64,000 nt of DNA, from the NCBI GenBank assembly GCA_002633005.1, contig NMRA01000135.1, positions 803,681 to 867,680 of the forward strand, read 5' to 3'. Of this stretch, positions 18,881 to 62,730 are shown piece by piece (the stretch's first letter is position 1; each line of letters begins with the position of its first letter). Below the pieces are notes generated by a model that saw only the letters and a program-made list of their open reading frames with translations, made no database searches and had not been told where the DNA came from. This DNA comes from Phoronis australis (taxonomy: Eukaryota; Animalia; Phoronida). A program made the position numbers and the translations under genes.

Positions 18881-21800
18881 CTATGACAAGAGCAGTTGCA
18901 GTAAAACGGAATTCTTGTCACGGACATTTGTTCGGACCAGTTCTGGTTTGGGTGATGCAAGCAGTTCGGGCTGCAGGTGAGTTGTGATCTCCACGCCGTC
19001 TATTGGACGAGTCATGTTGCGTGCCACTATCTGAGGAATGTCTTCCTGGACTTTGAGTTGAAGTTGCTGGGCCTGAAAAATATCAAACAAGTTTTCTATT
19101 GCATTTGAAAAATGAATTAGCTAAACTTAAGCCAGTCAGTCGTACTGTCACGATTTATAGCTATCGATGCTCTAAAGTAAACCATGGGCGGATTTCGGGC
19201 ACTGGCGGGGCTCCGGCAGCCATCGGGCGCAGCAATTCGTGATGATCGATGAACCGTAACGATGAACGCGTGCAACGGTATCACCACACCTAGTCCACCG
19301 TAGTGTAGTGAAGTTGTACCGATCACTCGTGACGTCAACCTCTCCTCGACCACTTAGGTACAGTCCGTAGATCCGTAGCCGGCACCGCCGTCATGATGAG
19401 TCCAATAGGATGTTCCAAGTCTTCCCCAGAGCAGCCATGGTCGAAACCACTACGGTTTACAGGGACGGATCCAGAATTTTGAGTTAGAGGCAGGCCATCA
19501 GCCAGGATTTTGGCAGTCAGACATTCGCACCTCAGAACTGCCAAATGGAATCTGGAAGAATTAATTTTAGGGGGACATGGCCCCCTTGCCCTCCCCCTTA
19601 AATCCATCGCTGGTTTAGAGCCGTGACGTGAATCGCGGGACGATCCCGTACTGGCTTGGCACCCTCGGACACCGGGACAGTGATTTTCGGGCAGAAATTA
19701 GGCACTGCCGAGGCTTTTTCTAGGTAGATCCGTCAGTCGTTTGGATAGACATTTTTAAAACTATATCATTAGTATTCGGGCAATCTGAACGAGAGATTGT
19801 ATATAAACCGGATCTAACATTTACCTCAGCTGTGTTCAGGGAACCGACTTTCATGGCTGTGGCCAAGACAGAGCGGATGATACCTAGCATGAACATCTCC
19901 AGTGTGTTGGTCAGACTGATACTGAGACAGGAACAGATGTAGCCAAATATTGGCGCGTGGTGACCGCGGATGGCTTTACAGGTAATGAGGTTTTGGAGCT
20001 GTTGGAAGCGATCTGAGCGAAATGTTCGTCGTGCGCAGTAAATGAGTGATGTGCCCTGTAAGATGGAGAATAATAACACGTTATTTTGGTCCTGAGAATT
20101 GAATAAACGAGATGCAATTGCTGCGGTTGGATAGAAAGCGCTGAACCGTCAGCGACAGTACTATTGACCGGGATACTTGCCAATTCATGCAAGATAGGGG
20201 CTTCTTTGTACATTTTATTATGGAAACGCTAAGAAATCATCCACGACATCAGATGTTTATATGTCAACATTATGTTTTTGTGTCATTCTCTCGCCATTTT
20301 CTTGGTGACGATTTCGTGATTGATTCGCCAAACGCCAACGATTATAGATTTTTACGGGTGGTGATGTATACAAATTATGACCAAAGACTAATAGTACTCA
20401 GCATCGCAACGAATAATACAAAAGTGTAACCAAGGTTTCGAAGGTCGGAGAAAAAGTAGCGTAATTACAGTGCCTAAGATCAGGAGCTGGGATCTAAACT
20501 TTGATTGTTGCTTAACGTCATGAGCATTGTTCATCAATAACAACGTGACGCGTGATCATGCGACGTCATTGTTGCTATACGGCGTATAACTTTTATGCAA
20601 CTGGGCCCAGGATTACACGGCAGTTAACCACCACAGCCATTATGTGCTCGACCATAGAATAATAGACATTCATCTTGAGTTTGCAAAGTAGAACAGAAAA
20701 TGCCAAAACTATTTTCGAGTTCGATCTCGGGTAAAGAGACTCCAATTCCAGAACTGAATAACGTGCCGAAATCTGTCCACGTCAGAAAATCATTAAAAAA
20801 AATATCTTCGTTAGGACCCCCAGAACATTCCTTTAGTCATACCGTCAACACCGAGAGGAGTCTACAATCAAATGCATATTTTTCTTTTTTGAAGTCTGTT
20901 CAATTAAAATTAACCTCTTACCTGTTTTATACTGGCCTTGCACGCCTTTGTATTATTAGCTAAGTGTATCTCTTGAGCCTCGTCCAACTTAAGAAGATCC
21001 ACAGGTGTCGCGGAGTGTCCTTCTCGTACGAAAGGAAGGTTGTATGAACCTAAAATAGCAATTATCGTAATGTCCAATGCCGTCTTCCAAATAAAGCGCT
21101 CTTTGGAAGGCTAAAAAAATCTATGTGTTCAAAGTGAGACGAAAACATCTCTTGAAGACATGGGATTAGTGGGGGACCCAGCGTGCTTGATTTTACTTTT
21201 TGTAAAAGTACACACCTTGCATGTTTATCTTGGAAATGCGTTTTTATTGTTCCCTTGACGTATGCTTGGTATCAGGGGAACAATAGAAAGTGACGTCAAC
21301 GGTTCAGAAAAAGTGAGTAGCTTGGGTCTGTTATCACATTTATTGAGGAAACATAATCATTCTACTCGCTAATGCATACAGTCTGTGCAGATCACTCGTG
21401 TTTTCCCAATGGAAATCGAGTGAAGGTGACTGCATGTAAGATGGATGCCTTTTACGTGACCGTCTATGTTACTCTTTGCTGCTGTCGATAGCAGGGGCGG
21501 ATGCAGGATTTTGAGTTAGGGGGGGCCATGACATGGAAATAACCAGAATTTCGGCAGATGCGCGCCCAGTCAAAAATGTGGGGACGGGTTGCGGACCTGT
21601 TGACTAAAAAAACCGTAAACGGGGTTTGTTCAGTTTGTTCAGGGCCCATGCATTGTTTATTCACCCCCAACGAGCCCGTGCTTGCGCGCACCCGAACTCA
21701 CAAATGGTGTCTGGTAGAATTTTACGAGGGGCATGGCCCCCTTGCCCCCCTCCTAAATCCGCCACTGACCGGGGCAGAGTATTAGCCAGGATTTTGCCCG

Positions 21801-37000: not shown

Positions 37001-40000
37001 TTGCAGTGTCCGGCTTGTTGACGCAACTAGTTCGATTATTGGTGTATTTGGCGATCAATACATACAATCTGGGTAAGGCAGGTATGTCTGGTATTACAGA
37101 TCTATTGATGACGTATCTTCAGATGTCTTAACATACCGAAAGGCATATTTTCTATGTATCTGAGCTATACTTGTTTAATTACATTTTCTCCGTATCATGC
37201 TTCGGCACATAAACCAGTAGTGTGACACAGCGTCCCCATACGTCAGAACTCACACCGGACGTATTATGCAGCAAATGGGAAGTTTCACCAGTGCAGTCTC
37301 GTTAAACTTCTTATCTGCCTTCTTAACGCCGTCCCAAAACCAGAAGGTAGATATTTCTGCCTGCTTACATTGGGATGGCTAGTACACTCCATCGATTGAT
37401 GCGACTGTCTTGTGGTTAGGAATCTTTTTTGTTGCCCATGGGGATCCCACGTGCTGGCCATAATATTAACATTTACCATGACAATTACTCGTGAGATGGC
37501 AATCATCCCGACACTATTGCAAAGGTTTAACACGGCGGCTCATCTGCCTTTCGATCAGATGCCGACGATCTCTCTGTAGCTGCCTTCTTATAAAAAAATC
37601 AAATCTGAACGCGGTCTGAAACTGGCCAAAAAGAATTCCCTCGCGGTGAAGTCTTAATATTATTGCACGATTACCGTCACTGTAGTTAGGATGACTTTAA
37701 GAAGAGCTTAGAAATATGTACAAGCTGTTGGTAATACGAAATTTCTCACAAAAGTGGAAACGGTCTACTCCAAACAGACTCTGTCGTTGAATTAACGGTC
37801 CATGCCAGAGGCTTTTCTATTGTGCTGCTAAGACCACTTAATCGGGTTTGGAAGGCAAATGTCAATGGCTATTTCTCGTTAAGCAGTCAACAGCTGACAA
37901 GTTTCTGAAGCCTCACTTAAGGATTTTTCTTAATCTATTGACTTCGCAGTTTATCTCGCGCGAATAGTTTCAATTACGTTTGAATTACTTCCTTACACAA
38001 GTGCAATACTTTCAGTTTCAAACAGCTACACTCTCATCTTGCTGTTTCGACTTAAATGCTGTTCTTGTTTTCATCTAACAAGCTGTTTTCTCACACGTAA
38101 ATCTGCTTACTGAAATATTTTGGAAGTGAAAAATACGTTTGGAAAACATGTTCTAGTCCATGTGTGTATGTACGTACATTACTCAGTTCTATATCAGGTG
38201 CTTCCCTCAAGAAAAAGCGGGGGTATGGTCAGCGGGTATACCAGCAAATTTTTACTTTACAAGGACACACTCCTGGCTTGATTCGAGACGTTCATAGCTT
38301 CACACCGCCGATTTGGATTTTTGTAAATCAGTGCCCGGGGTCCAATTTTGTACTCGCAATCAAGTTCGAAATTATTTTTCATAAATTTCTTTTTGCATTG
38401 TACTTTCGATTTGAAGATAAGAGTCTATTACTATTTGATCGTGTGAATGTCTGCCTAGCCGGAACTTCATTTTCTTGGACTAAATCCTGGAATCAGAACT
38501 CAAAATGTCAAGCTTTCATTCGAGTTTGTAGCTCAAATCTAGAGGTCACCAAGCGCAAACTTGCAAAATGTGTAATGTACTAGAGCACGCAACCATAAAC
38601 GCTTACCTGGAGTTCGGACAAAAGCAGACCGAAACGAAAACATTAAAAATGATTTCGGTTTCGAAATTCCATTTCTGAACTCGAATTCGAACTGTTCGTT
38701 TTAACATTTTCTCAAAATAAATGTTTTCCGTTTTGTACACGAACACATTAGGCCTATGAGTTATATGCAAATGAGATTAATTATAAAATAATCCAGACCC
38801 ATTTGAGCTGACTCCCAACACTCAAGCAATATTTCCAAGTTCAGTTGAATAAAAAATTTCCAGTTAAAGCTTGAGTTCGTAGCTTGAATTTCGGGTCCAC
38901 GCTCAAGGACAAACATTTTGGACAATGTCACGAACAGGAAGGACCGATTGGTCAAGTTGCCCAGATCCGGTTTTTAATCGACTCTCGGCTTTAGATTTTT
39001 TCTGGCTTGCCAGATACTGCCTCCAAAATGTCAGAGTTTTGTCTTCTGCAAAATTACAGTAATCAGACTGCCGGTCATCTAAAAATTTCGCCTCATTAAT
39101 TTGCGCTTTCGATAATTATCCAGGAGTTGTACTCTTCCCTGCGCGTTATTTGTTCACACACTTTAACTCCACTATACAGTGGCACATCTTATTCTAAACA
39201 AGTTGTCGACATGCTAATGATTTCTCGAGTGTCGAATAAGACTTAAGTCAAAGAAATCAAACACGTTTGTCAATGATGTGGGTTAGTTAATTAGTGTCTC
39301 TAACTTTTGTCAAGACGCTTTCGAGAGTAGCGTTCCAGTAATTAGTTGTAGAATGAATAACTGTGCATTGCCACACGAATAAAAGGAAAGCTCAGCTTTA
39401 CCTTAAATCTGAAAAAATAGAAAATCTTGTCATATCCGTGTAAATTCGTATGATCGGGAATACTTTAACAAGTAGTTTTGTGTAGTCGCCATAGTTATTA
39501 TAATAAAAGGTACAAAGGTAACCAGACAGTCGTGAAGGATACATGTACGTGTACTCGCTAAATGTTCAGTAACTGGTACATACGTTTTTTTACCAGGATT
39601 GTCGTTGTTTTTGTTGTTAAGTAATATATAAGGACACATTATGTGACAACCGTTTTATGTTAAAAAGCAAAATGAAATATCTAGCCTTTTAAGATAAAGT
39701 GAAAGTTTCAGTTGTTCAACGAGACTAAGTTATAGAGAATGTATCAACATTTTAAAGCTAAATGTTAAACTTAAACTTGTCTCAGTTGGCAAGCCCGTAA
39801 TGACGTGATCTACTATATATTGTAATTGCTTAACTTACCAAACGCAGACGACATTGGCAAACATAAGCTTTTATCAGTAAAAGTTAAATACAAAATGAAA
39901 ACTATTCGTTTGCAGGGCTACATATGTTTAGTTGTCTTTTTGTTTGCTCTAAAAGGATAAAGTCAGCTTCGGGCAGTGGTCTGCATAACAAATCTACAGA

Positions 40001-40275: not shown

Positions 40276-41367
40276 TGGGAAACAAAACAAGTGGTCGAAG
40301 CCAATAATCCCTTATGATCGCCTACTGCATACCAACTATTGGTATCGATTTAAGGCCTGATAGTTTTTCAATGTAACTTAATATTGACACCAAAGACATT
40401 TATCTTTTTCATCAGCCGCTCTCCAGAATAGTTGCCGCAAAAGGCAGACGACGAGAGTAGGCAGATTTTCTACCAAAATGAGACCCGAGGAGCCCAGCAC
40501 AGCTCATGGTGGATGAGTATCTCATCGCTTTTCACAGTTGTGGGTGTGCATATGGACAAGCGTCGTCCCACAAAGTTGCCGATGCACGCGCACATTAGAT
40601 GGAGTAACTGAAAAGGAGACCAGTTTTGTTTCAGAATCAAAGGCGGATACAGTTTTTTACGACAAAAGGAGATCCAAGTAAAACGACAGGTTTCTGAAGA
40701 AAATTCTACATCAGACACAATGAGTAGAAAACCGGCAATGAAGTTTAGTGTCGTGATTTCTGCGTCCAGCGGCCTATACTCATGAGCAAACAATATAAAT
40801 TTTCTACTGATTTTCCCGTAGTTTTATTTGTACTTTGGCTAGTGATCCAGTCTAAATTTGTGCATGATGATCAGTAGATTCGAGCTACACACGCGGAAAA
40901 AACGCAAGATTCCTAGTTCAGACTCGAAATCGTGCATTTAATGCTGGGGACACTAAGTGCAAAATAAGCCGATCCGTGTAAACCATGATGTATTCAAGCA
41001 GAGAATAATGGATACTTATCAAGAGTTCACAGAAAGTAAAACAGAAAAAGATAAAAATAATTTCGAGTTTTATTTCCGTTGTAAGGTTTACTGAGACCCC
41101 AGGTTCAGCCGGTAATTTAACGTTCCCTGTCACCTGTCAACAAAGGCCCAAGTCCACAAATTTTACCCAAATCTTTCCTGAAAATATCAGTCCATTTTGA
41201 GCATGTATGTATGGTATTTAACGTCGTTTCGGAAACTCTGTAGAAAAGGACCTTATGACATTAACCGTTTCAATCGATAAAACAATGCTTCTGTTTTGCG
41301 GAGTTACTATATGGACCAAATTTTACAGTGGTCAAATTTCTGCAGCTTTCACAGTGGAGAATAAGGG

Positions 41368-44500: not shown

Positions 44501-45340
44501 TGGCCTACATATAATACCTGGCCTACCCTTAGATTTTAATATTTTGGGAGTGCAAATTTGCCGCGGCCGCAGTCTAACTGTTCAACGCCACCTAAGCATT
44601 TTTGGGGTTTCATAACGACTGAACGATCGCACTTCTAATTCCATAATGGAAAAACGCAGTAACTCGTATAATTTGAGGCTCCTGTCACTGGCTGAAACTA
44701 GCTGATAGTTGCTGGACTCAAACTTGACGAATAATTTTGTACGTTACACATCCAAACATTTATCCGGGTACAGTCGCCATTGTTTTGTTTACATCAAAGG
44801 TCAAAGGTCACACTTTCCATATAAGGAAAATGTAGGACAAAAATCGAAGAAAGTTCACTGGTCGTTTTTTGTAATTTAAAACTAAAATAAAATTGCTTTG
44901 AATTCAATAGAAATTCAAAATCTTTACGAACAAATCGTAAAAATGCCTGGTCACAGGTTGAATTAAGTTTCAGTAGCAGACAACCTTTTTGAATAGGGTT
45001 GTTAAAAAAACCTCGACTCCCACACGCCACAACCCCTTCGACCCACGACCCCCTCGACCAACGGCCCACAACCCCTCAACCCAGTCTACACAAGCTCGAC
45101 CGGATCTGAACATAGCACAAGTGCTGACTTGCAAGACCAATGAGTCGAGATGTGAGCTCAGCTGGCTTTTTTTGCAATTAAGAGAGTCGATTCGGCAAGT
45201 TTGAAAGCCAAAAACAGAAAAAAAAACAACGCGATCAAATCAAAGACCTACCAACCTTACAAATGTCGTTCCCGGCATAGTATAATCGTCTCGTCTGCTC
45301 TTCAGTGAATGACAGATTCAAGTTATAAGAAGTAAGTTAT

Positions 45341-45645
45341 TGTAGCAAATGTCGAGGTCAGTCTCGGCTGTGGCGTCTCTATGTTGTGATGTCCTTTTCG
45401 TGGCAATGTTGGTCATGGCCTGGTGCGACATCTGACGCCAGAAGAGCCCAGCCGAGGTCACCCTGCTATCATGTGACCGTCACCCTTCAAGACCACGTGA
45501 CAAGATCTTCTGGCTCTTCTGGAGTTCGCTGCCGTCCTGTACGGACGTAATGTGAGTATACTCCGGACTTTGCTCTTGCACCGCGTTAATAGGCCCGAAC
45601 CTGTGTGTCTGCTTTTGGCCAGCCGACCCCTTTTTTATTACAACA
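45341..45645 (+). repeat. 5-prime LTR (305 bp)
   Basis: Direct repeat of 50278-50579 with TG..CA ends. Confidence 0.95.
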
Positions 45646-45647
45646 TT

Positions 45648-45661
45648 TGGCGTAGTCGGCA
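45648..45661 (+). other. Primer-binding site complementary to the tRNA-Ser 3-prime end
   Basis: TGGCGTAGTCGGCA lies 2 nt after the LTR. It is the reverse complement of ..TGCCGACTACG-CCA, the 3-prime end of eukaryotic tRNA-Ser(AGA). Confidence 0.85.
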
Positions 45662-45974
45662 CCTATTTCCCGGTGTTGGAGCAGCGTGCGTGTCTTTCGG
45701 TGGTGGCGGGAAATAAGTTTTCATAACTTGTTTTCTCGTGCCCATTTTGACAGCCACGTGCGTCACTGCTTTTGCAGTGCCTGAGTTCAGGTTTACTAGA
45801 ATTTCAAGCGTTTGTCGTTAGTTTAGTGTCCGTTTTTGTAAATAGGTATTTATTATTGGTATAATAGTATATAGTCTGTATTAATTATTTTGTTAGAGTT
45901 TTGAACCTTTCTAGGAATTCTAGAATAGGTCACGTGACCACGTGGTTTTCCTAAGACGAAGCCCCGTGTGTGTT

Positions 45975-47379
45975 ATGTCTTTCCAAGACAGGGTTCCGGT
46001 AAACTTCTGTCTTTCCCAAGAGTTATTCAAGCTCTCGGGCATGACAGAAGATATTGCCCAATCCATTCTGGCTTTTCGGCAAACTCAGCCGATAACCCCA
46101 GATAATATTAACCACATCCATTCCGGATGGAGGTTGACGAGGAGTGCTATTTCTGGCATTGATTTCACCCAGTATGGTGATGTTCAGTCCAGAGATATCT
46201 CTCCTCTGGGTAGTCCTGTACGTACCCGTTTGCCCCAAGACTTAAGTGGTATTGCCCAGGTCTGTGACAGGTTAAACAAGTCCCCTGTTAAGAAGGAAGC
46301 ACTCTTCTTCGCCTGTGCCTGCCCAGAGTTCTGGTAGCCGAACGGTTGGTCCGTCTACCCACACCCGTCCCTATAGTTTAAGGCCAAATGCCCCGTCTAA
46401 GCTAGTGTTTCTAAGGGAAAAAGGCAAATGGGACGACTTTTTTGGAAATTTCAGCGCTTGGCTAAGGACAACTTATGGTCCGAAGACAAGTGCGTCTCGG
46501 AGTTAGGAATGTGTTTGGACGATGTGGCCTTGCATTTCTTCCTTAACTTCATGAGAACGAACCCAGACTCTGGTTTCGATGACGTGGCTGCACACATGTC
46601 AGAACATTTTTCTTCGACTGACTGCACCCAGGTCCTACGCGTTGAATTCCAATACGCCGAGCAGAAGCCGGGGGAATCTATTGAGAACTGGGCGTGTAGG
46701 TTAAACAGGTTGTTTTTAAAAGCCTTCCCGAACCCTTCGTTTCTCCCTTGGGTTACGCGATAAGGTTGTAGGTACGCAGGTGATGAACTCATCCCCTTTG
46801 TCCCTAGCTGAGGCAGAGTCTAAAGCTGCGTGGTTCGCAACGACCCAGCGATTGATGGCAAATCAAAACCGTCGGTCTGTTTGGTTTGAGGGCTCACCAT
46901 CGCGCAAAGACGAAGCTTCTGTCAACCTGCTTTCACAGAACAAAAAACCTGCACTTAAATTCAGTCCAATAGCATCCTCTGCTTCAAACTCTGCGGTTGA
47001 GTCTAGGCTGCATGCTTTAGAGTCTCAGATGGCTAAGGTCAACTCTGAAATAGGAGGTCTTAAAGAAGACAATGCCCTTATACATCGAGAAGTTAAAAGT
47101 ATGTCCCAGACTATGAGTTCGAATTTTAGAGGCTTTGCCTCAGACTTGTCGAGGGTATTAAAATTGTTGGCTTCTAATCCAAAACCATCTAGATCCCCTC
47201 CACTATCTAGGTCCCCCCAAGCTTCCCCACAGAGACCTTCAGTTATGTGTTTTAAGTGTGGTAAGTTTGGTCACTACCAGTCTGTGTGCCGTAGCCCGCA
47301 GTCTGCTAGAATTCGTCGTACATCCTTTGGGGATAAGTCCGATGATTTAAACGAGTTGGCGCTGGACGATCAGGTCTAA
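45975..47379 (+). pseudogene. gag: Retrotransposon gag (N-terminal HhH-like domain, capsid-like core, coiled coil, CCHC zinc knuckle), frameshifted
   Basis: Four consecutive ORF pieces (45942-46337, 46315-46506, 46428-46763, 46780-47379) join through about 3 frameshifts and 1 stop. Motifs: GKWDDF/WKFQRLAKDNLWSEDKCVSELGMCLDDVALHFF, EFQYAEQKPGESIENWACRLNRL, CFKCGKFGHYQSVC (CX2CX4HX4C). Confidence 0.85.
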
Positions 47380-47467
47380 CTCCAGTCCAGTCTCCTGATA
47401 CCAATTGTAGGGTATCCTCATCAAACGCCTATCGACTAATCTGTTAGACTGTTTTAGGGCAGGGAGT

Positions 47468-49392
47468 TTGTCCACTTCTTCTCGAGGTATTTCTGTGCAC
47501 GATGAGTGTCAGGGGAGAGGCCGACCTGTCTTGGCTAGATCTTGTGATGTAGTTCATGATTTGGTTGACTTGTCTACTGACATTCCTTGTACTCGGAATT
47601 CCCTTGGTGATATGGAGTGTCCAGCCTCCCTAAGTTCTGTGCTCACTCAGAATAGTCCGATTGAGTTACCCATTACTGATACTGATGTGATTAATACCCC
47701 AGTGTTAGTTCCGGTTAATTCGATAGATAAGTCTGAGTTGGGTGGAAAAGCTGTTTCTAGTACCCAGGTTGTTGCTAATTCTGAGTCATTAGATTTTGTG
47801 CACACCCTGGTTCCGGATCCCATTTCAGGGGGGTCAAAGGTGCCCCACAACCCTGTCGTTATGCAGGATCCACCTCCTGAGTTTGTAGATGCCCCTGTGG
47901 ACACTATTAATATTCAGGAGGCGTCTTCTGGTAACACCCTACACCAACAGGCTGGCTGTCTGCTTCACTGGAGGCAGAAGGTCACCCTTCCACAAAGGGT
48001 GAGGGATGCTGGTTCGCCATACCCTCGGATGTCGTGTGTGGCAAAAGTCCGCCAGCCACCTGGCCTGCCCCTAAAGGGTCGACGTTCGTCTGGGGCTTCG
48101 CCGTCCGCGTCCAAAGCTAAATCAGGACCACCTCCTGATTTGGCTGTAGATGCCCACTTCCATCTGGATCGCTTGTCGGCATCCTGGGCCCGGTCTCCAA
48201 TCTTTTTACTCGAAATGGAACTCGAAATTAGGTTTGACATTTTCTACTCTACTTTTGGGCGAACTCAACATAAGTGTCTATTATTCTATGCTCGAGTACA
48301 CAATAACTTACGTAGATAATTTATTGCCCTTACTTCACAGTTTGTAAACCCAATATTAAAGCAGTAAGTTCGAGTTTGAACTCGAAATTTCGAGTTTTTA
48401 CTCGAGTTTGTAGCACGAATATAAGGGTCTTCAAGGGCAAACTTGAACTAGAAACTCCTATGCATAAACTATAATGTATTCGAGCACAATCTGATAACCA
48501 ATTATCTTAAGTTCGCACAAAAGGAGCAGAGAAATTGCCAAAAATAGTTTCGAGTTCGTTTCGAGTACAAAGATTAGAGACTGGGCCCAGGGCTCAGCGT
48601 CATATCACTGAGAATAGGATGCTGACAATCGATCAGATGCTCAGCACCCAGCTGCCACGGGTTTCTCAAAAACCTGTGCGGTTGGTTGGTGGGATTGCAG
48701 TTTTCTGCGATGTGGAAAACTGGAAGTACGTTGAAGCTTCCTGTTTCCCACATGGCTGGAAGGCTGTGGTGGGCATCCACCCCAAACGGGTTGGAACAAC
48801 GAATCCCGGTGTTCTGGAGCGTCTCCCCCAGCTACTAAAGGAGCCCTTTGTGGCTGGCTTAGGCGAGGTCGGTCTGGAGGCCCGGGAGGACTTGGCCATC
48901 CAAAAAGAAGCTTTGGAGGAGAAGGTGCGAATCTTTGCGGAGGTTCGGGCCAGCTCCCCCAGCTTCAAAAACAAAGTCGTGGTGATCCACCTTCGTGGTT
49001 CCTCCGACAATCCACGTTTCCTGGAGGGACAAGACTTCGTCTTTGATCTCCTGAAGCGCCACTGTGATGCAAACTTGGGTTTGCATCTCCATTGTTTTGG
49101 AGGTGCGCCCGAGGATGTACTCCGGTGGACGGGGTTCTTTAGAAACTGCCACTTCGGCTTCGCCGGTCATGTGCGGCCGTTTCTTAAGTTCCAAAATAAG
49201 GGATTACAAGAGGTTCCGATGAATCGACTCCTCCTGGAGTCTGATTCACCGCACCTCGCCATTGGGCCTTGCCCAATGGCGCTCCAATACCTGGGGGAAG
49301 TAGCTATGGAGGTGGCGCAGCGTTCTCGTCGTCCGCTGCGTGACATCCTGGCTGTTTCCACCAGGAATGCCAGGCGGCTTTACCATCTCTAA
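47468..49392 (+). pseudogene. tatD: TatD-family deoxyribonuclease ORF with a Ser/Pro-rich N-terminal linker, interrupted by a MITE (about 506 aa when repaired; TatD domain about 48146-49392)
   Basis: VDAHFHLD, VGIHP, GLGEVGLE, VVIHLRG, LHLHCFGG, FGFAG and VPMNRLLLESDSPHL are the ordered TatD motifs. Joining 48186 to 48591 gives an in-frame ..RLSASWAQRH.. junction. Intronless and visibly more GC-rich than the flanks. Confidence 0.9.
48187..48587. mobile_element. PIF/Harbinger-like MITE inserted in the TatD ORF
   Basis: About 40-bp TIR GGCCCGGTCTCCAATCTTTTTACTCGAAATGGAACTCGAAA / TTTCGAGTTCGTTTCGAGTACAAAGATTAGAGACTGGGCC. CWG flanks (CTG 48184-48186, CAG 48588-48590). AT-rich interior with CTCGA/TCGAG repeats. 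Confidence 0.85.
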
Positions 49393-50277
49393 CAAATTGT
49401 TAGAGGTGGTTCAGCATCCTGGTGTGCCTGGGTCATAACCTATGCCCCAGGTTTTCTCCTAGTCCATTGGGTAACTGCCCGTTATTATAAACTCTGAGGC
49501 TGACTACGGTCTCTGGGTTTGTGCCTTACCCTTGGTCTTAGGAGAATTGTGATGTCCGTATTAAGTAGTATAATTAGTTAAGTGGCGTACTGGTCCATTA
49601 TTTTTATATAGTAGTGTTATTCGTTAAAACTATATAGTATATTTTTGTTATAAGTTTTCATACTGTATATATAGTCTATTTATATATTCAAGACTATACT
49701 TTCTATAGTATTATGTATTAGTTGTTATAGTTTATTTTTGTATATTAAGTTAAGTTTTCTATATAGTATATGTATGTTATGAGAGACTATATCATTTTAT
49801 ATCTCAATGCATCACTACTAAAGTATAATGAATACTCATTTTATGGCCAGTATGCTTTTCGTTGTTCAGTTTTTTAGTTTTTTTTTTTTAAATGTATATA
49901 TTCTCTCGCCAGGTCATCACCAACAATCAGAGTGTTGTCATAGCATAGTCCAGAAATTCTATGCTCCCTGGTACTGGTATTAGTGGAGCATATTTTTCTT
50001 TTTTTTCTTTTTTAGTCATGTTCGACTACTATAATGGATATATGCTATGACTGTGTGTCTCATTAGTATTTGTTTTTTTTTGGTAGGGGGGGGGAATAGT
50101 TAGATTAAATTTTAACCAGTAATTCTTACTTTACAAGGTCACTCCTCATCATGTTAGTTATAGGGTTTAAGGTCTTGTCACTGTTGTCTTAGGTCAAGGG
50201 TTTATGTTTAGATGTTGGGAATGACGTTCGCCATTTGCTATAAGGGCTCCACTCCTTTTCTTTAGGTAAGGGAGGAA

Positions 50278-50579
50278 TGTAGCAAATGTCGACGTCAGTC
50301 TCTGCTGTGGCGTCTCTATGTTGTGATGTGCTTTTCGTGACAATGTTGGCCTTGGCCTGGTGCGACATCTGACGCCAGAAGAGCCCAGCCGAGTTCACCC
50401 TGCTATCATGTGACCGTCACCCTTCAAGACCACGTGACAAGATCTTCTGGCTCTTCTGGAGTTCGCTGCCGTCCTGTACGGACGTAATGTGAGTATACTC
50501 CGGACTTTTCTCTTGCACCGCGTTAATAGGCCCGAACCTGTGTGCCTGTTTTAGCCAGCGACCTCTTTTTATTACAACA
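50278..50579 (+). repeat. 3-prime LTR (302 bp)
   Basis: Direct repeat of 45341-45645, preceded by a polypurine tract. Confidence 0.95.
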
Positions 50580-50583
50580 TTAT

Positions 50584-52545
50584 TATTTTATTTCCACAAA
50601 CCCGGTCCTCGATGAGAGTTACCAATATTAAAACTGAGCGTGTTAGCTGAATGATCGGAATATATAAAATCATTAATTATATTAGACTGACATCTTGAAG
50701 ACATAACAATGTCAACTAGCCAATAGCCTAGTCTACTTTGAGCTTTTAATTGTTTATCTCTCCACGAGTACTTCCTTATCCCAGGGTTTCTCATCCTCCA
50801 TACATCTATTAAACTAAAATTTCTACAGAAATTATGAATATTGTCAATAAGATTTTTCTTATGGAGGACGTCAGTTAGCCCAAGTTTGTCCAAGTCAGTG
50901 AGTGGGCAGCACAGAGGACATTACATAATTGGAGGTCACTCAATTCACTTTCAAGTCTAGACAGGAAGATCAGTTGATTTCTTAAATCGTTTGAGAAATA
51001 TACATTAACAAAAACGAAATCTTCCTCATAGAGTTTACATGAAACAATATTGAAGCCACCATTTTCATCGTTTTTTACCACAATATTCCTAATGTTTTGC
51101 GAAATATTAGAATCAAATAATATAGTGGTTCCTCTACTATGTTTTGTTCCAAAGCTTGAAAAATTAAGACCATTCCACTCTTTTTGCAGAATATGTTCAA
51201 CTTCTGGACTAAAATACGTTTCCTGTAAATAAACAATGTTGAATTTGCTATGTGATATGAAATTCAATAAACGTTTCCACTTAATATCTGAATTTAATCC
51301 CCGGACATTTAAGGATACCAGTTTTAAATTATTCATCTTCACAACAATAGAGAACCTCAATGCCCACCCCCCAAGAGAACTAATACAAAATATGCATCAA
51401 GTGATATCACTCCCAAATAATAACGATTACCTATCTCATTCACACACTTACCATTCACAACCGGGGGAAGGGGGGAAACGAACAACAAAGAAACAAAAAT
51501 GTTCAGTTCCATATGATCGTCAATCAATCTCCGGAAAGCTTTTCTGGGTTCGATTCATTTGTCACACAACAATGTCGCGGGGCGTAATACTGCTTATATG
51601 TCGTCTAAGGAATTAATTCTCTTGATGGCGCCGCTCTTTAACTTCACAAATATTTTGCCATTGGTGCTCCACGAACTGTCCACTTGTTCATGCTTGAAGG
51701 ATTGTTTCAACAAGGAATAGTTTGTCGCAGTAAGATCTTCCAAAATGAATGTTCCGGTGTCTTTGGTTTTCCTCTTTGTGTAGCACTTTCGACTTGGTTT
51801 TATACGACATAAATTTGACGATGATTGGGCGCGGTTTAATCAAGGCCGATGAATGTCTGGTTGTTCTACTATCCTTCTTTCCGACTCGGTGCACTTTGTC
51901 TATATCTTTGTCAATAACACCAATTTCCAAGATATTCTTGCAAAATTCCAACACCAGCTGTTCACAGTTTTCTTCATCATTCTCCTCTATCCCATATACC
52001 CGAACTGAAGTCGAACGCGAATACTGCTCCAGTGAATTGATCTTTTCTCTCAACATCGTATTTTCTTGTTGTAAAGCAACAATGTCTTGTTTGAAATATT
52101 GGAGCTCCTCTTTAATTGCCTGTCGTATGGAAGTGTTGAGTTTTCTCTCCAGTTGTTCCATGCGTTCATCAAAGTTGGTAACCGTGCCCGTTGCCATGGC
52201 TGCGTGATGACTTATTGTTAGACTATTATTTGTCCACCAGTAGCTTTCCTGAGGGTTTCTCTTTAGACTTTCATTGGTGTTATATAATCACCTGTCAGGG
52301 GATTTGGATGTGACACTTCATGGTCAAATCAAGACTGAAAAGAGTTTGTTCTTCACCACCAACTCCTACCTTATCTACTGAATCCATTCAGATGATATGC
52401 ACTCCAGCCTTTTCTACACAACTTGTTCCACATTCAGGTATCAAGAAATCTTCACACACCTCCAATAAAAGTTTTTTTTTCAAGAAAAGGGTCAGAGCTG
52501 AGAACACGTGCGTGTTGTTATCTCGATTATCTCCCCTGGCCTCCA
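50584..52545 (-). mobile_element. L1/Tx1-like LINE, 5-prime part: ORF1 plus the APE endonuclease of ORF2 (decayed, 3-prime part missing)
   Basis: ORF1 about 52197-51610: coiled coil, LEQYSRSTSVRVYGIEE, IDKVHRVGK, PRPIIVKF, then frameshifted EDLT..SSWSTNGKIFVK. ORF2 51336-50588: LKLVSLNVRGL, LQETY, VNVY, IDVWRMRNPG..YSW, SRL.YWL, SDHS, RGPGLWK. The 5-prime boundary is approximate. Confidence 0.88.
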
Positions 52546-61490: not shown

Positions 61491-62730
61491 TTGGGCTTTT
61501 TCTCGGCATCGGCAAATCGACTTAATTTGTACTTAAGAACATAAGTTCTTACGGCTTGGTGGATTACGCCGAAACCTTCCAGATTCAATATTTATTCATC
61601 AGTCTCAAGAGCGCTGTTAGGATTTTTGAAAAAATGCCTAGTTTTGCTTACTGTAATAAAATACCTTACGTTTTGCGAGTTGATTTGTCATAGAAACCAA
61701 ACAAAAATGCTAATAAAAAAAACTAACAACGTTTTTGAGGTGAGTGGTGAAGTTTTCTTTTAAAAAACGGTTTCATTAAAATTGACCGAGGGATTATTGT
61801 GCTATGAATGTACCTTTCTTAAACATGGAATTTTTATATTTCCTGATTTTTTTCTTTCATAAAATGTATATTTTCACTAGTTGAAAAAGCCTAGTTTTTT
61901 GATATAAGAGTTCTTAGACTAATGGAGGCCACTAAATAAGGTTTGGTATAATCTTCAGAGAGCACTAGCTTTTTAGTGTAAATGTGCTACTTAAACTGCT
62001 GGGCCTTTTCGAATGTCAAATGCTTGAGGATTTATGCCTACATTTGGTGAAAAGACTGGAGCTACGACCCATTTCCCACTATGGGTTTTCGCCTTTTTGT
62101 TTGAGGTTTATTGTACGCTGTAATTATCTGTCGTGATGGTAATGATTTGCCGCTTAGTAGACATAAGCCCTGTGGAGTCTGAGGTAGCGTTCATTGTGTT
62201 TAAATTTATTATGCAACAAATGCCATCCCTCAGTGACATGTATTGACCTTTGTGATAGTGCAGGCTCTCTCAATATTACTTATGACTTATACTCCATGGC
62301 TCGGGTCTAATCTTTACACTCGAAATTGTTCTTGACATTTTCCGCCCTGCACTTGTGCGAACTCAAGCTACATGTAAGTGGCACTTATTCTGTATTCGGG
62401 TATCACTACAGTTTATTTGTATAGCTGACTTGTCACAGCTCGCTTTTGAATTAGAAATTTAAAGTTTTTACTCGAAATATCATGATCTCTCTTTTGTAAC
62501 TCGACTGTAGGACTGGCCAGTCCTAGAGTTCTTTGCTCGAATCTTTAATCTAGTGGTCATCAAGTGCGAACGTGACTGTACTAGACACTAATCTGAGCAA
62601 AGGATGCCCTTGATCATAGAATAATACTCGGACATTTATCGTACAAAAGTATAACGGAAAATTCAAGTTCGAGTTCAGAGATCAGATGCCGGGCTGTGAA
62701 CAGAACGCGACATGTTTAATCACGGTAGTT

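Follow-up and report, generated by a model that had tools for sequence, protein, structure and literature searches.

A 64,000-nt stretch of the Phoronis australis genome (contig NMRA01000135.1, positions 803,681 to 867,680; hereafter the window, in whose own numbering positions are given) contains at 45341-50579 a long terminal repeat (LTR) retroelement that encodes Gag and a TatD-type protein and in which no pol domain is found. The element is probably a degenerate member of a multi-copy family of LTR retrotransposons with gag and TatD and no pol, likely derived by deletion of pol from a Gypsy-type lineage in which TatD is a regular accessory gene, and copied and integrated by the enzymes of a relative. 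What appears to be new is TatD as a type of cargo, carried in a pol-less, amplified form of an LTR element.

Anatomy of the element and its missing pol

The features of the element and its borders are listed here with the strand and, where relevant, the basis of the assignment.

45337-45340, no strand: left target-site duplication (TSD), TTAT (sequence check)
45341-45645, plus: 5′ LTR, 305 nt, TG...CA (LTR comparison)
45648-45661, plus: primer-binding site (PBS), presumably of tRNA-Ser type (sequence)
45975-47379, plus: gag in three frame pieces, 45975-46337, 46401-46763 and 46720-47379 (Pfam, Atlas), with an N-terminal helix-hairpin-helix-like motif, a capsid-like region and a CCHC knuckle at 47248-47289 (Pfam)
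47346-47399, plus: predicted −1 frameshift signal, made up of the gag-frame slippery heptamer TTTAAAC, a spacer of 6 nt and an H-type pseudoknot (47359-47399)
47346-47447, plus: 33-codon −1 frame ending at a stop, no Pfam match
47411-48182, plus: 5′ part of the second open reading frame (ORF2), 257 stop-free codons, S/P/V/L-rich, first ATG at 47612
48149-48163, plus: TatD DxHxH motif, within the ORF2 5′ part
48183-48591, no strand: very high-copy miniature inverted-repeat transposable element (MITE) with 33-nt inverted arms, inserted in TatD (read depth, repeat search)
48589-49392, plus: remaining 267 codons of the TatD barrel, with E at 48865, H at 48988, H at 49090 and D at 49243
49393-50267, plus: AT-rich non-coding 3′ region, no noteworthy protein-family match (Pfam search)
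50268-50277, plus: polypurine tract (PPT) (sequence)
50278-50579, plus: 3′ LTR, 302 nt (LTR comparison)
50580-50583, no strand: right TSD, TTAT (sequence check)

Paired LTRs, a 4-bp TSD and a PPT had been claimed in the original prediction, made by a model from the letters of the window, and are borne out by the LTR alignment and the flanking sequence. The two LTRs are identical in 291 of 305 aligned columns, with 11 mismatches and 3 gaps, and have TG...CA ends; the TTAT found on both sides of the element is an AT-rich 4-mer and, taken singly, modest evidence. The PPT is a 10-nt purine tract directly 5′ of the 3′ LTR, and the PBS-like sequence, TGGCGTAGTCGGCA, starts with TGG 2 nt past the 5′ LTR. 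We take the PBS to be of the tRNA-Ser type; no tRNA gene with which to compare it was found in the window. An Rfam search returned a single match, at chance level.

The copy is decayed, as had been supposed: gag is broken into three frame pieces and TatD is split by the MITE. The expected gag with a zinc knuckle is nevertheless recognizable, in Pfam by matches that all lie under the cut-offs (Retrotrans_gag, E 3e-4; PNMA, E 1.4e-4; zf-CCHC, E 0.018) and in the Atlas by a first match to Retrotrans_gag with a score of 0.93, which together place it with Gypsy-type Gag proteins; a comparison with the PDB gave no match. A helix-hairpin-helix-like motif opens gag at 45975-46090 (HHH_3, E 0.0023, below cut-off); to our knowledge, this motif is not among the usual features of Gag.

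Near its end, the 220-codon 3′ piece of gag contains TTTAAAC as its sole in-phase slippery heptamer, and the score of the pseudoknot that follows was reached by 9 of 300 shuffles. The 33-codon −1 frame that the predicted signal would open is, by position and not by homology, a putative stub of a deleted pol. A Gag-TatD fusion made by −1 frameshifting was considered for this copy and rejected, as the −1 frame stops after its 33 codons, and no frame change at the gag end of other copies is found among the indels listed (12 of 22).

Between gag and the 3′ LTR, 19 fragments searched against Pfam at E up to 10 gave no match to protease, reverse transcriptase (RT), RNase H or integrase, in agreement with the earlier claim that pol is missing there. 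These fragments, from 73 listed, comprise the plus-strand pieces outside gag, the MITE and TatD, together with four on the minus strand. Of the protease-RT-RNase H-integrase order that characterizes Ty3/Gypsy elements there is nothing beyond the putative 33-codon stub, and the element, which works like a Gypsy element, is a non-autonomous derivative and not a full Ty3/Gypsy member. TatD had been described as standing in place of pol; it does occupy the pol position, whereas nothing suggests that it replaces pol.

ORF2 starts at 47411 in the third frame, that is, neither in the gag frame nor in the −1 frame, and over its 5′ part the other two frames hold 11 and 25 stops. The TatD domain matches PF01026 with E 2e-24 and a score of 86.8 bits, where the cut-off is 27. 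Its predicted model (mean predicted local distance difference test, pLDDT, 88) adopts the TIM-barrel TatD fold; the top Foldseek matches are all TatD proteins (E 2e-13 to 6l25), and structural alignment with solved TatDs gives 21-24% identity. All five metal ligands are kept, the N-terminal HxH as well as E, H, H and D, so that the TatD domain with every expected ligand stands as first described. At about 40% identity to its nearest relative, the protein retains all five metal ligands and 16 further conserved columns, out of 20 columns checked together with HxH; 18 of the 20 match the majority. The HxH motif marks group II TatDs, together with TATDN2 and YcfH (PMC10085689), and by this motif the protein belongs to the group II TatD nucleases, with nuclease activity predicted. 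The original prediction had placed TatD in an intronless ORF; the domain is there, but the ORF is not continuous in this copy, as the MITE at 48183-48591, which that prediction does not mention, interrupts it.

The MITE, of ∼400 nt, separates the HxH motif from the remaining barrel in this copy only. The word depth over it is ∼475,000, compared with 500-1,800 beside it. A joint that skips the MITE is present in DNA contigs (X1, depth 790) and in two sets of RNA reads (X7, 8 reads; X8, 6 reads), and other copies therefore lack the insertion. The MITE ends resemble, as far as we can judge, those of PIF/Harbinger MITEs. Its inverted arms are long and imperfect, and related pieces occur at four further sites of the window (20639-20739, 38496-38563, 40846-41076 and 62318-62475).

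Copies of the family and relatives of its TatD

The copy number of the element was assessed in DNA contigs that are 95-97% identical to this copy (X1), which we take to come from another individual because of the 3-5% distance, and in X3, from the same sample. In X1, word depth reaches 688-752 over gag, 485 over the ORF2 linker and 797 over TatD, whereas divergent single contigs lie at 32-68; in X3, the corresponding depths are 85-141 versus 4-24, and the ratios match those of X1. These data suggest about 12-20 near-identical copies, with the qualification that the measure is word depth and not a copy number. Near-identical copies at such depth point to recent amplification. LTR depth is more than twice the internal depth, and a further insertion site is indicated by 15 RNA reads that join a diverged LTR end to a flank unlike both flanks here. 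RNA reads over the element are otherwise thin (depth 1-25).

Between them, the X1 contigs span the whole internal region. Depth is continuous at 640-760 across the junction of the gag stop and ORF2, and no joint or loose end lies at that junction among those listed (24 of 158 loose ends). The ORF2 linker itself is covered by one 514-nt gap-free contig at depth 485, about 12 times the single-copy level. Owing to the unbroken depth and the lack of a loose end at the junction, most copies of the family appear to be pol-less.

The proteins nearest to this TatD are 30-42% identical, and 414 representatives were retrieved at E<=1e-10, including some share of ordinary TatDs. Nothing above 42% identity over most of the domain is present among 1.84 billion representatives, a collection that does not include the host's own genome. 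Named members of the clade come from Mya, Mytilus, Mactra, Haliotis and Lytechinus and are often labelled TATDN2 or YcfH-like; NCBI calls several of them 'putative deoxyribonuclease TATDN2'. The window TatD belongs to an extensive family whose genes are present in multiple copies in clams, mussels, abalones and sea urchins and are entered in databases as ordinary host genes. In a quick tree built from 50 of the 119 clade domains, with no TatD of eukaryote hosts included, it lies nested within 48 relatives and is separated from 25 bacterial TatDs (SH-like approximate likelihood ratio test, SH-aLRT, 99).

The genes of this clade behave like transposon genes in that they are dispersed and multi-copy. 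Mya arenaria has 13 members on 11 chromosome-size scaffolds, of which the seven full-length ones (824 aa) are 97.3-99.9% identical, and one clade cluster has 125 members, which lie on Mb contigs. In all 95 longer relatives scanned (drawn from 290 proteins), TatD occupies an ORF of its own, and none of these ORFs contains a pol domain. Scored with the clade profile, YcfH reaches 135 bits, TATDN3 59 and TATDN1 56.

Upstream of TatD, a conserved, folded domain is present in 78 of the 83 relatives whose sequence extends far enough; it starts with CP..GC..H..H and ends in PxNSPAxLxHWR (residues 28-165 of P0017 and 330-480 of P0034), here called the HWR domain after its final motif. A profile built from 45 of these relatives finds a mere trace in the window ORF2, at 3.2 bits compared with a median of 127. 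The domain is predicted with pLDDT above 90 in most blocks in a relative, has no Pfam family above cut-off and gives Atlas matches under 0.9; it is a previously undescribed domain. A second conserved helical motif occurs near the N-terminus of 24 of 47 long relatives (within the first 100-250 residues of P0033, P0034, P0036, P0037, P0039, P0047 and P0049) and is absent from the window. Extra domains in the TatD ORF are rare: a lone zinc knuckle in 3 of 95 relatives and a PHD finger in 1 of 95 (P0047, P0105, P0155, P0252). Four clade members on short contigs (P0003, P0032, P0053, P0066) bear the names of metagenome-assembled genomes of clam symbionts (Thiodiazotropha, Sedimenticola) and are likely host DNA binned with the symbiont.

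Scans for a generic TatD motif returned 80 loci in metagenome contigs, 80 in genome contigs (1 of 64 parts of each of these collections) and 8 in viral contigs, all of them bacterial TatDs; a viral-contig motif scan of 9 loci gave none with TatD. None of 177 scanned loci fell in the clade score range (best 148 bits, versus 210-355). Clade-type TatD was not found as host contamination in any of 400 Gammaproteobacteria genomes (one genome unscored), and a weak search for Gag-Pol relatives gave none among 25 candidates.

Origin and possible role of the TatD gene

The original prediction had offered two options, a Gag-TatD family mobilized in trans or a pol-deleted derivative of a TatD-bearing lineage. 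We favour the pol-deleted derivative, since the predicted frameshift signal and the putative stub in pol position survive and TatD is a separate ORF in 95 of 95 relatives. The ancestral element, with TatD as an accessory gene beside gag and pol, would have lost pol and kept its LTRs, PBS, PPT and gag. Its RNA would start in the 5′ LTR and be packaged by Gag, and a helper would supply both the RT, priming at PBS and PPT, and the integrase that makes the 4-bp duplication; TatD would be produced as a separate protein with no fusion to Gag.

Several observations weigh against this account. Folding energy lends the pseudoknot no support (z of −0.07 and −0.52 in plain folding). The element is not bridged by any single contig, and as the contigs are short, a pol-bearing branch would stay hidden. 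The linker depth is about two-thirds of that of gag and TatD, so that one copy in three may be different in that part and might contain pol. The flanking long interspersed nuclear element (LINE) has a similar depth (515), and part of the signal could thus come from a duplicated block; the tool itself cautions that word depth is no copy number. LTRs or pol beside a clade TatD were not seen in the locus scans, which gave bacterial TatD or nothing. The same depth data would fit an individual deletion copy, with the high-depth copies being autonomous gag-pol-TatD elements or a duplicated block and no pol-less family existing, a reading that we consider very improbable. It is countered by the gap-free 514-nt linker contig at about 12 times single-copy depth, by high-depth copies that lack the MITE and differ by 3-5% and by the excess depth of the LTRs.

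Still further from the data is a one-off capture of a host TATDN mRNA, for which the NCBI names of several relatives could speak and to which we give almost no credence. The original prediction had named a TatD confined to one copy and near-identical to a host TATDN mRNA as the sign of such an event; by depth, the gene is instead multi-copy, its best identity is 42% and it is nested in a multi-copy clade.

As to what TatD does, the weakest part of our proposal is that it may act as a separate protein, a 3′ nuclease of the two-metal type that would attack R-loop-like or structured RNA at the loci of the element itself and so keep the element transcribed against silencing; we put this forward as a tentative suggestion. 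Such an RNA-directed role would account for the retention of the metal ligands in a family without pol, alongside the decay of the adjacent domain. Human TATDN2 is described as degrading the RNA of R-loops with little DNase activity, and, against our suggestion, as barely attacking plain RNA-DNA duplexes (PMC10711561); the kinship with TATDN2, moreover, is drawn from database names and the HxH motif.

A function for TatD is favoured by its retained ligands and by 524 codons in all that are free of stops, next to a neighbouring domain that has eroded. Conversely, TatD may be a passenger that drifts after inheritance from the parent element, while the family spreads through its cis signals and gag, a reading that we consider rather unlikely. 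Two columns that are nearly invariant among its relatives (P in 50 of 51 and D in 51 of 51) are changed in TatD, which also has a long end branch in the quick tree (1.21, median 0.5); both features fit relaxed selection. No translation route for ORF2 was found either: the −1 frame stops at 47447, no acceptor-like site matches in 47381-47720 and no splice joint is listed among 402 RNA reads. The long branch, the changed columns and the missing route favour drift, as does the near-complete loss of the HWR domain, and the rotifer ORF3 accessory genes taken up below show no clear departure from neutrality within the genome (PMC5408684). Drift is harder to reconcile with the conserved columns retained at ∼40% identity and with the 257 and 267 codons free of stops, given that 11 and 25 stops interrupt the other two frames over the 5′ part; the loss also seems selective, in that one domain has decayed next to a preserved barrel.

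TatD might alternatively act on DNA in or beside the particle, trimming the 3′ ends of complementary DNA or cutting abasic sites in integration repair. YcfH, its best structural relative by profile (135 bits), is described as having single-stranded DNA 3′ exonuclease and apurinic/apyrimidinic endonuclease activity (PMC10085689), and the helix-hairpin-helix-like motif in gag would suit such a role. However, no fusion to Gag or Pol would package the protein: the −1 frame misses ORF2, and among 95 relatives none has TatD joined to pol and three carry a single zinc knuckle. Processing of DNA within the particle is consequently the less likely, and we judge it improbable.

The pol-deleted reading can be extended to a two-partner system, in which a pol-less satellite has shed its replication genes and the extra domain and keeps a selected, active TatD that would serve as an anti-silencing nuclease in trans for itself and its helper, within an ancient mollusc and echinoderm clade of TatD-bearing LTR elements, hundreds of whose genes are annotated as host TATDN2. 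Taken as a whole, this extension is doubtful.

Comparison with known elements and the surroundings of the element

Non-autonomous LTR elements that keep gag only, or gag and protease, form a general class. The present element shares with that class intact cis signals, the lack of RT and integrase and amplification in trans, and differs in having an enzymatic accessory gene in the pol slot and a predicted frameshift signal. Rotifers are known to harbour LTR elements that carry accessory genes for enzymes; no TatD cargo is described in the literature covered, and, going by the search listings, we found no report of TatD in LTR elements there (supplements, Repbase, Dfam and GyDB lie outside this coverage, and a curated entry may exist). 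The main texts of PMC6238403 and PMC6431247 contain no occurrence of 'TatD'.

The closest parallels are Juno and Vesta of bdelloid rotifers, which are likewise Gypsy-like LTR elements with a non-env accessory ORF of 3′-exonuclease type and kept catalytic residues. The ORF3 accessory genes of these elements are closer to one another than to host genes, and their function is untested there (PMC5408684; Rodriguez, Kenefick, Arkhipova 2017). In contrast to the TIM-barrel TatD here, their ORF3 is a DEDDy exonuclease, and all the rotifer families described encode pol with a dUTPase, whereas the present family lacks pol (PMC5408684). With group II TatDs (E. coli YcfH, human TATDN2 and TATDN3), the protein shares HxH, the E/H/H/D ligands and the TIM barrel, and with TATDN2 also a long low-complexity N-terminal extension (PMC10085689, PMC10711561). 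It differs from them in its low identity to solved TatDs (only 21-24%), in being multi-copy and element-borne, and in the extra folded domain that its clade relatives carry upstream.

Should the clade prove to be carried by such elements, many genes of bivalves, abalones and sea urchins that now bear the names TATDN2 or YcfH-like would be transposon genes, and claims of gene-family expansion in those genomes would be affected. The giant squid Hox cluster is reported to hold a gene named TATDN2 beside transposon-like genes (PMC6962438), and this gene may be a member of the same clade. A pol-less, amplifying TatD family offers a natural experiment on what accessory nucleases do for LTR elements.

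The element is inserted in a decayed LINE (50584-52287, minus strand), where the endonuclease region ends. This LINE has an ORF1-like frame at 51691-52287 with a weak Transposase_22 match, and the frames at 50588-51396 are, by their motifs, presumably those of its endonuclease. On the opposite side of the element, the LINE frame continues for a few codons and is followed by another repeat. Two further repeats lie on the left flank, at 45030-45090 and 45190-45320; one is a short tandem tract rich in CGACCC, and the other reaches a depth above 20,000. Finally, an exon-like frame that speaks for an animal host lies at 1954-2349 on the minus strand and resembles the end of a WD40 protein such as DDB2.

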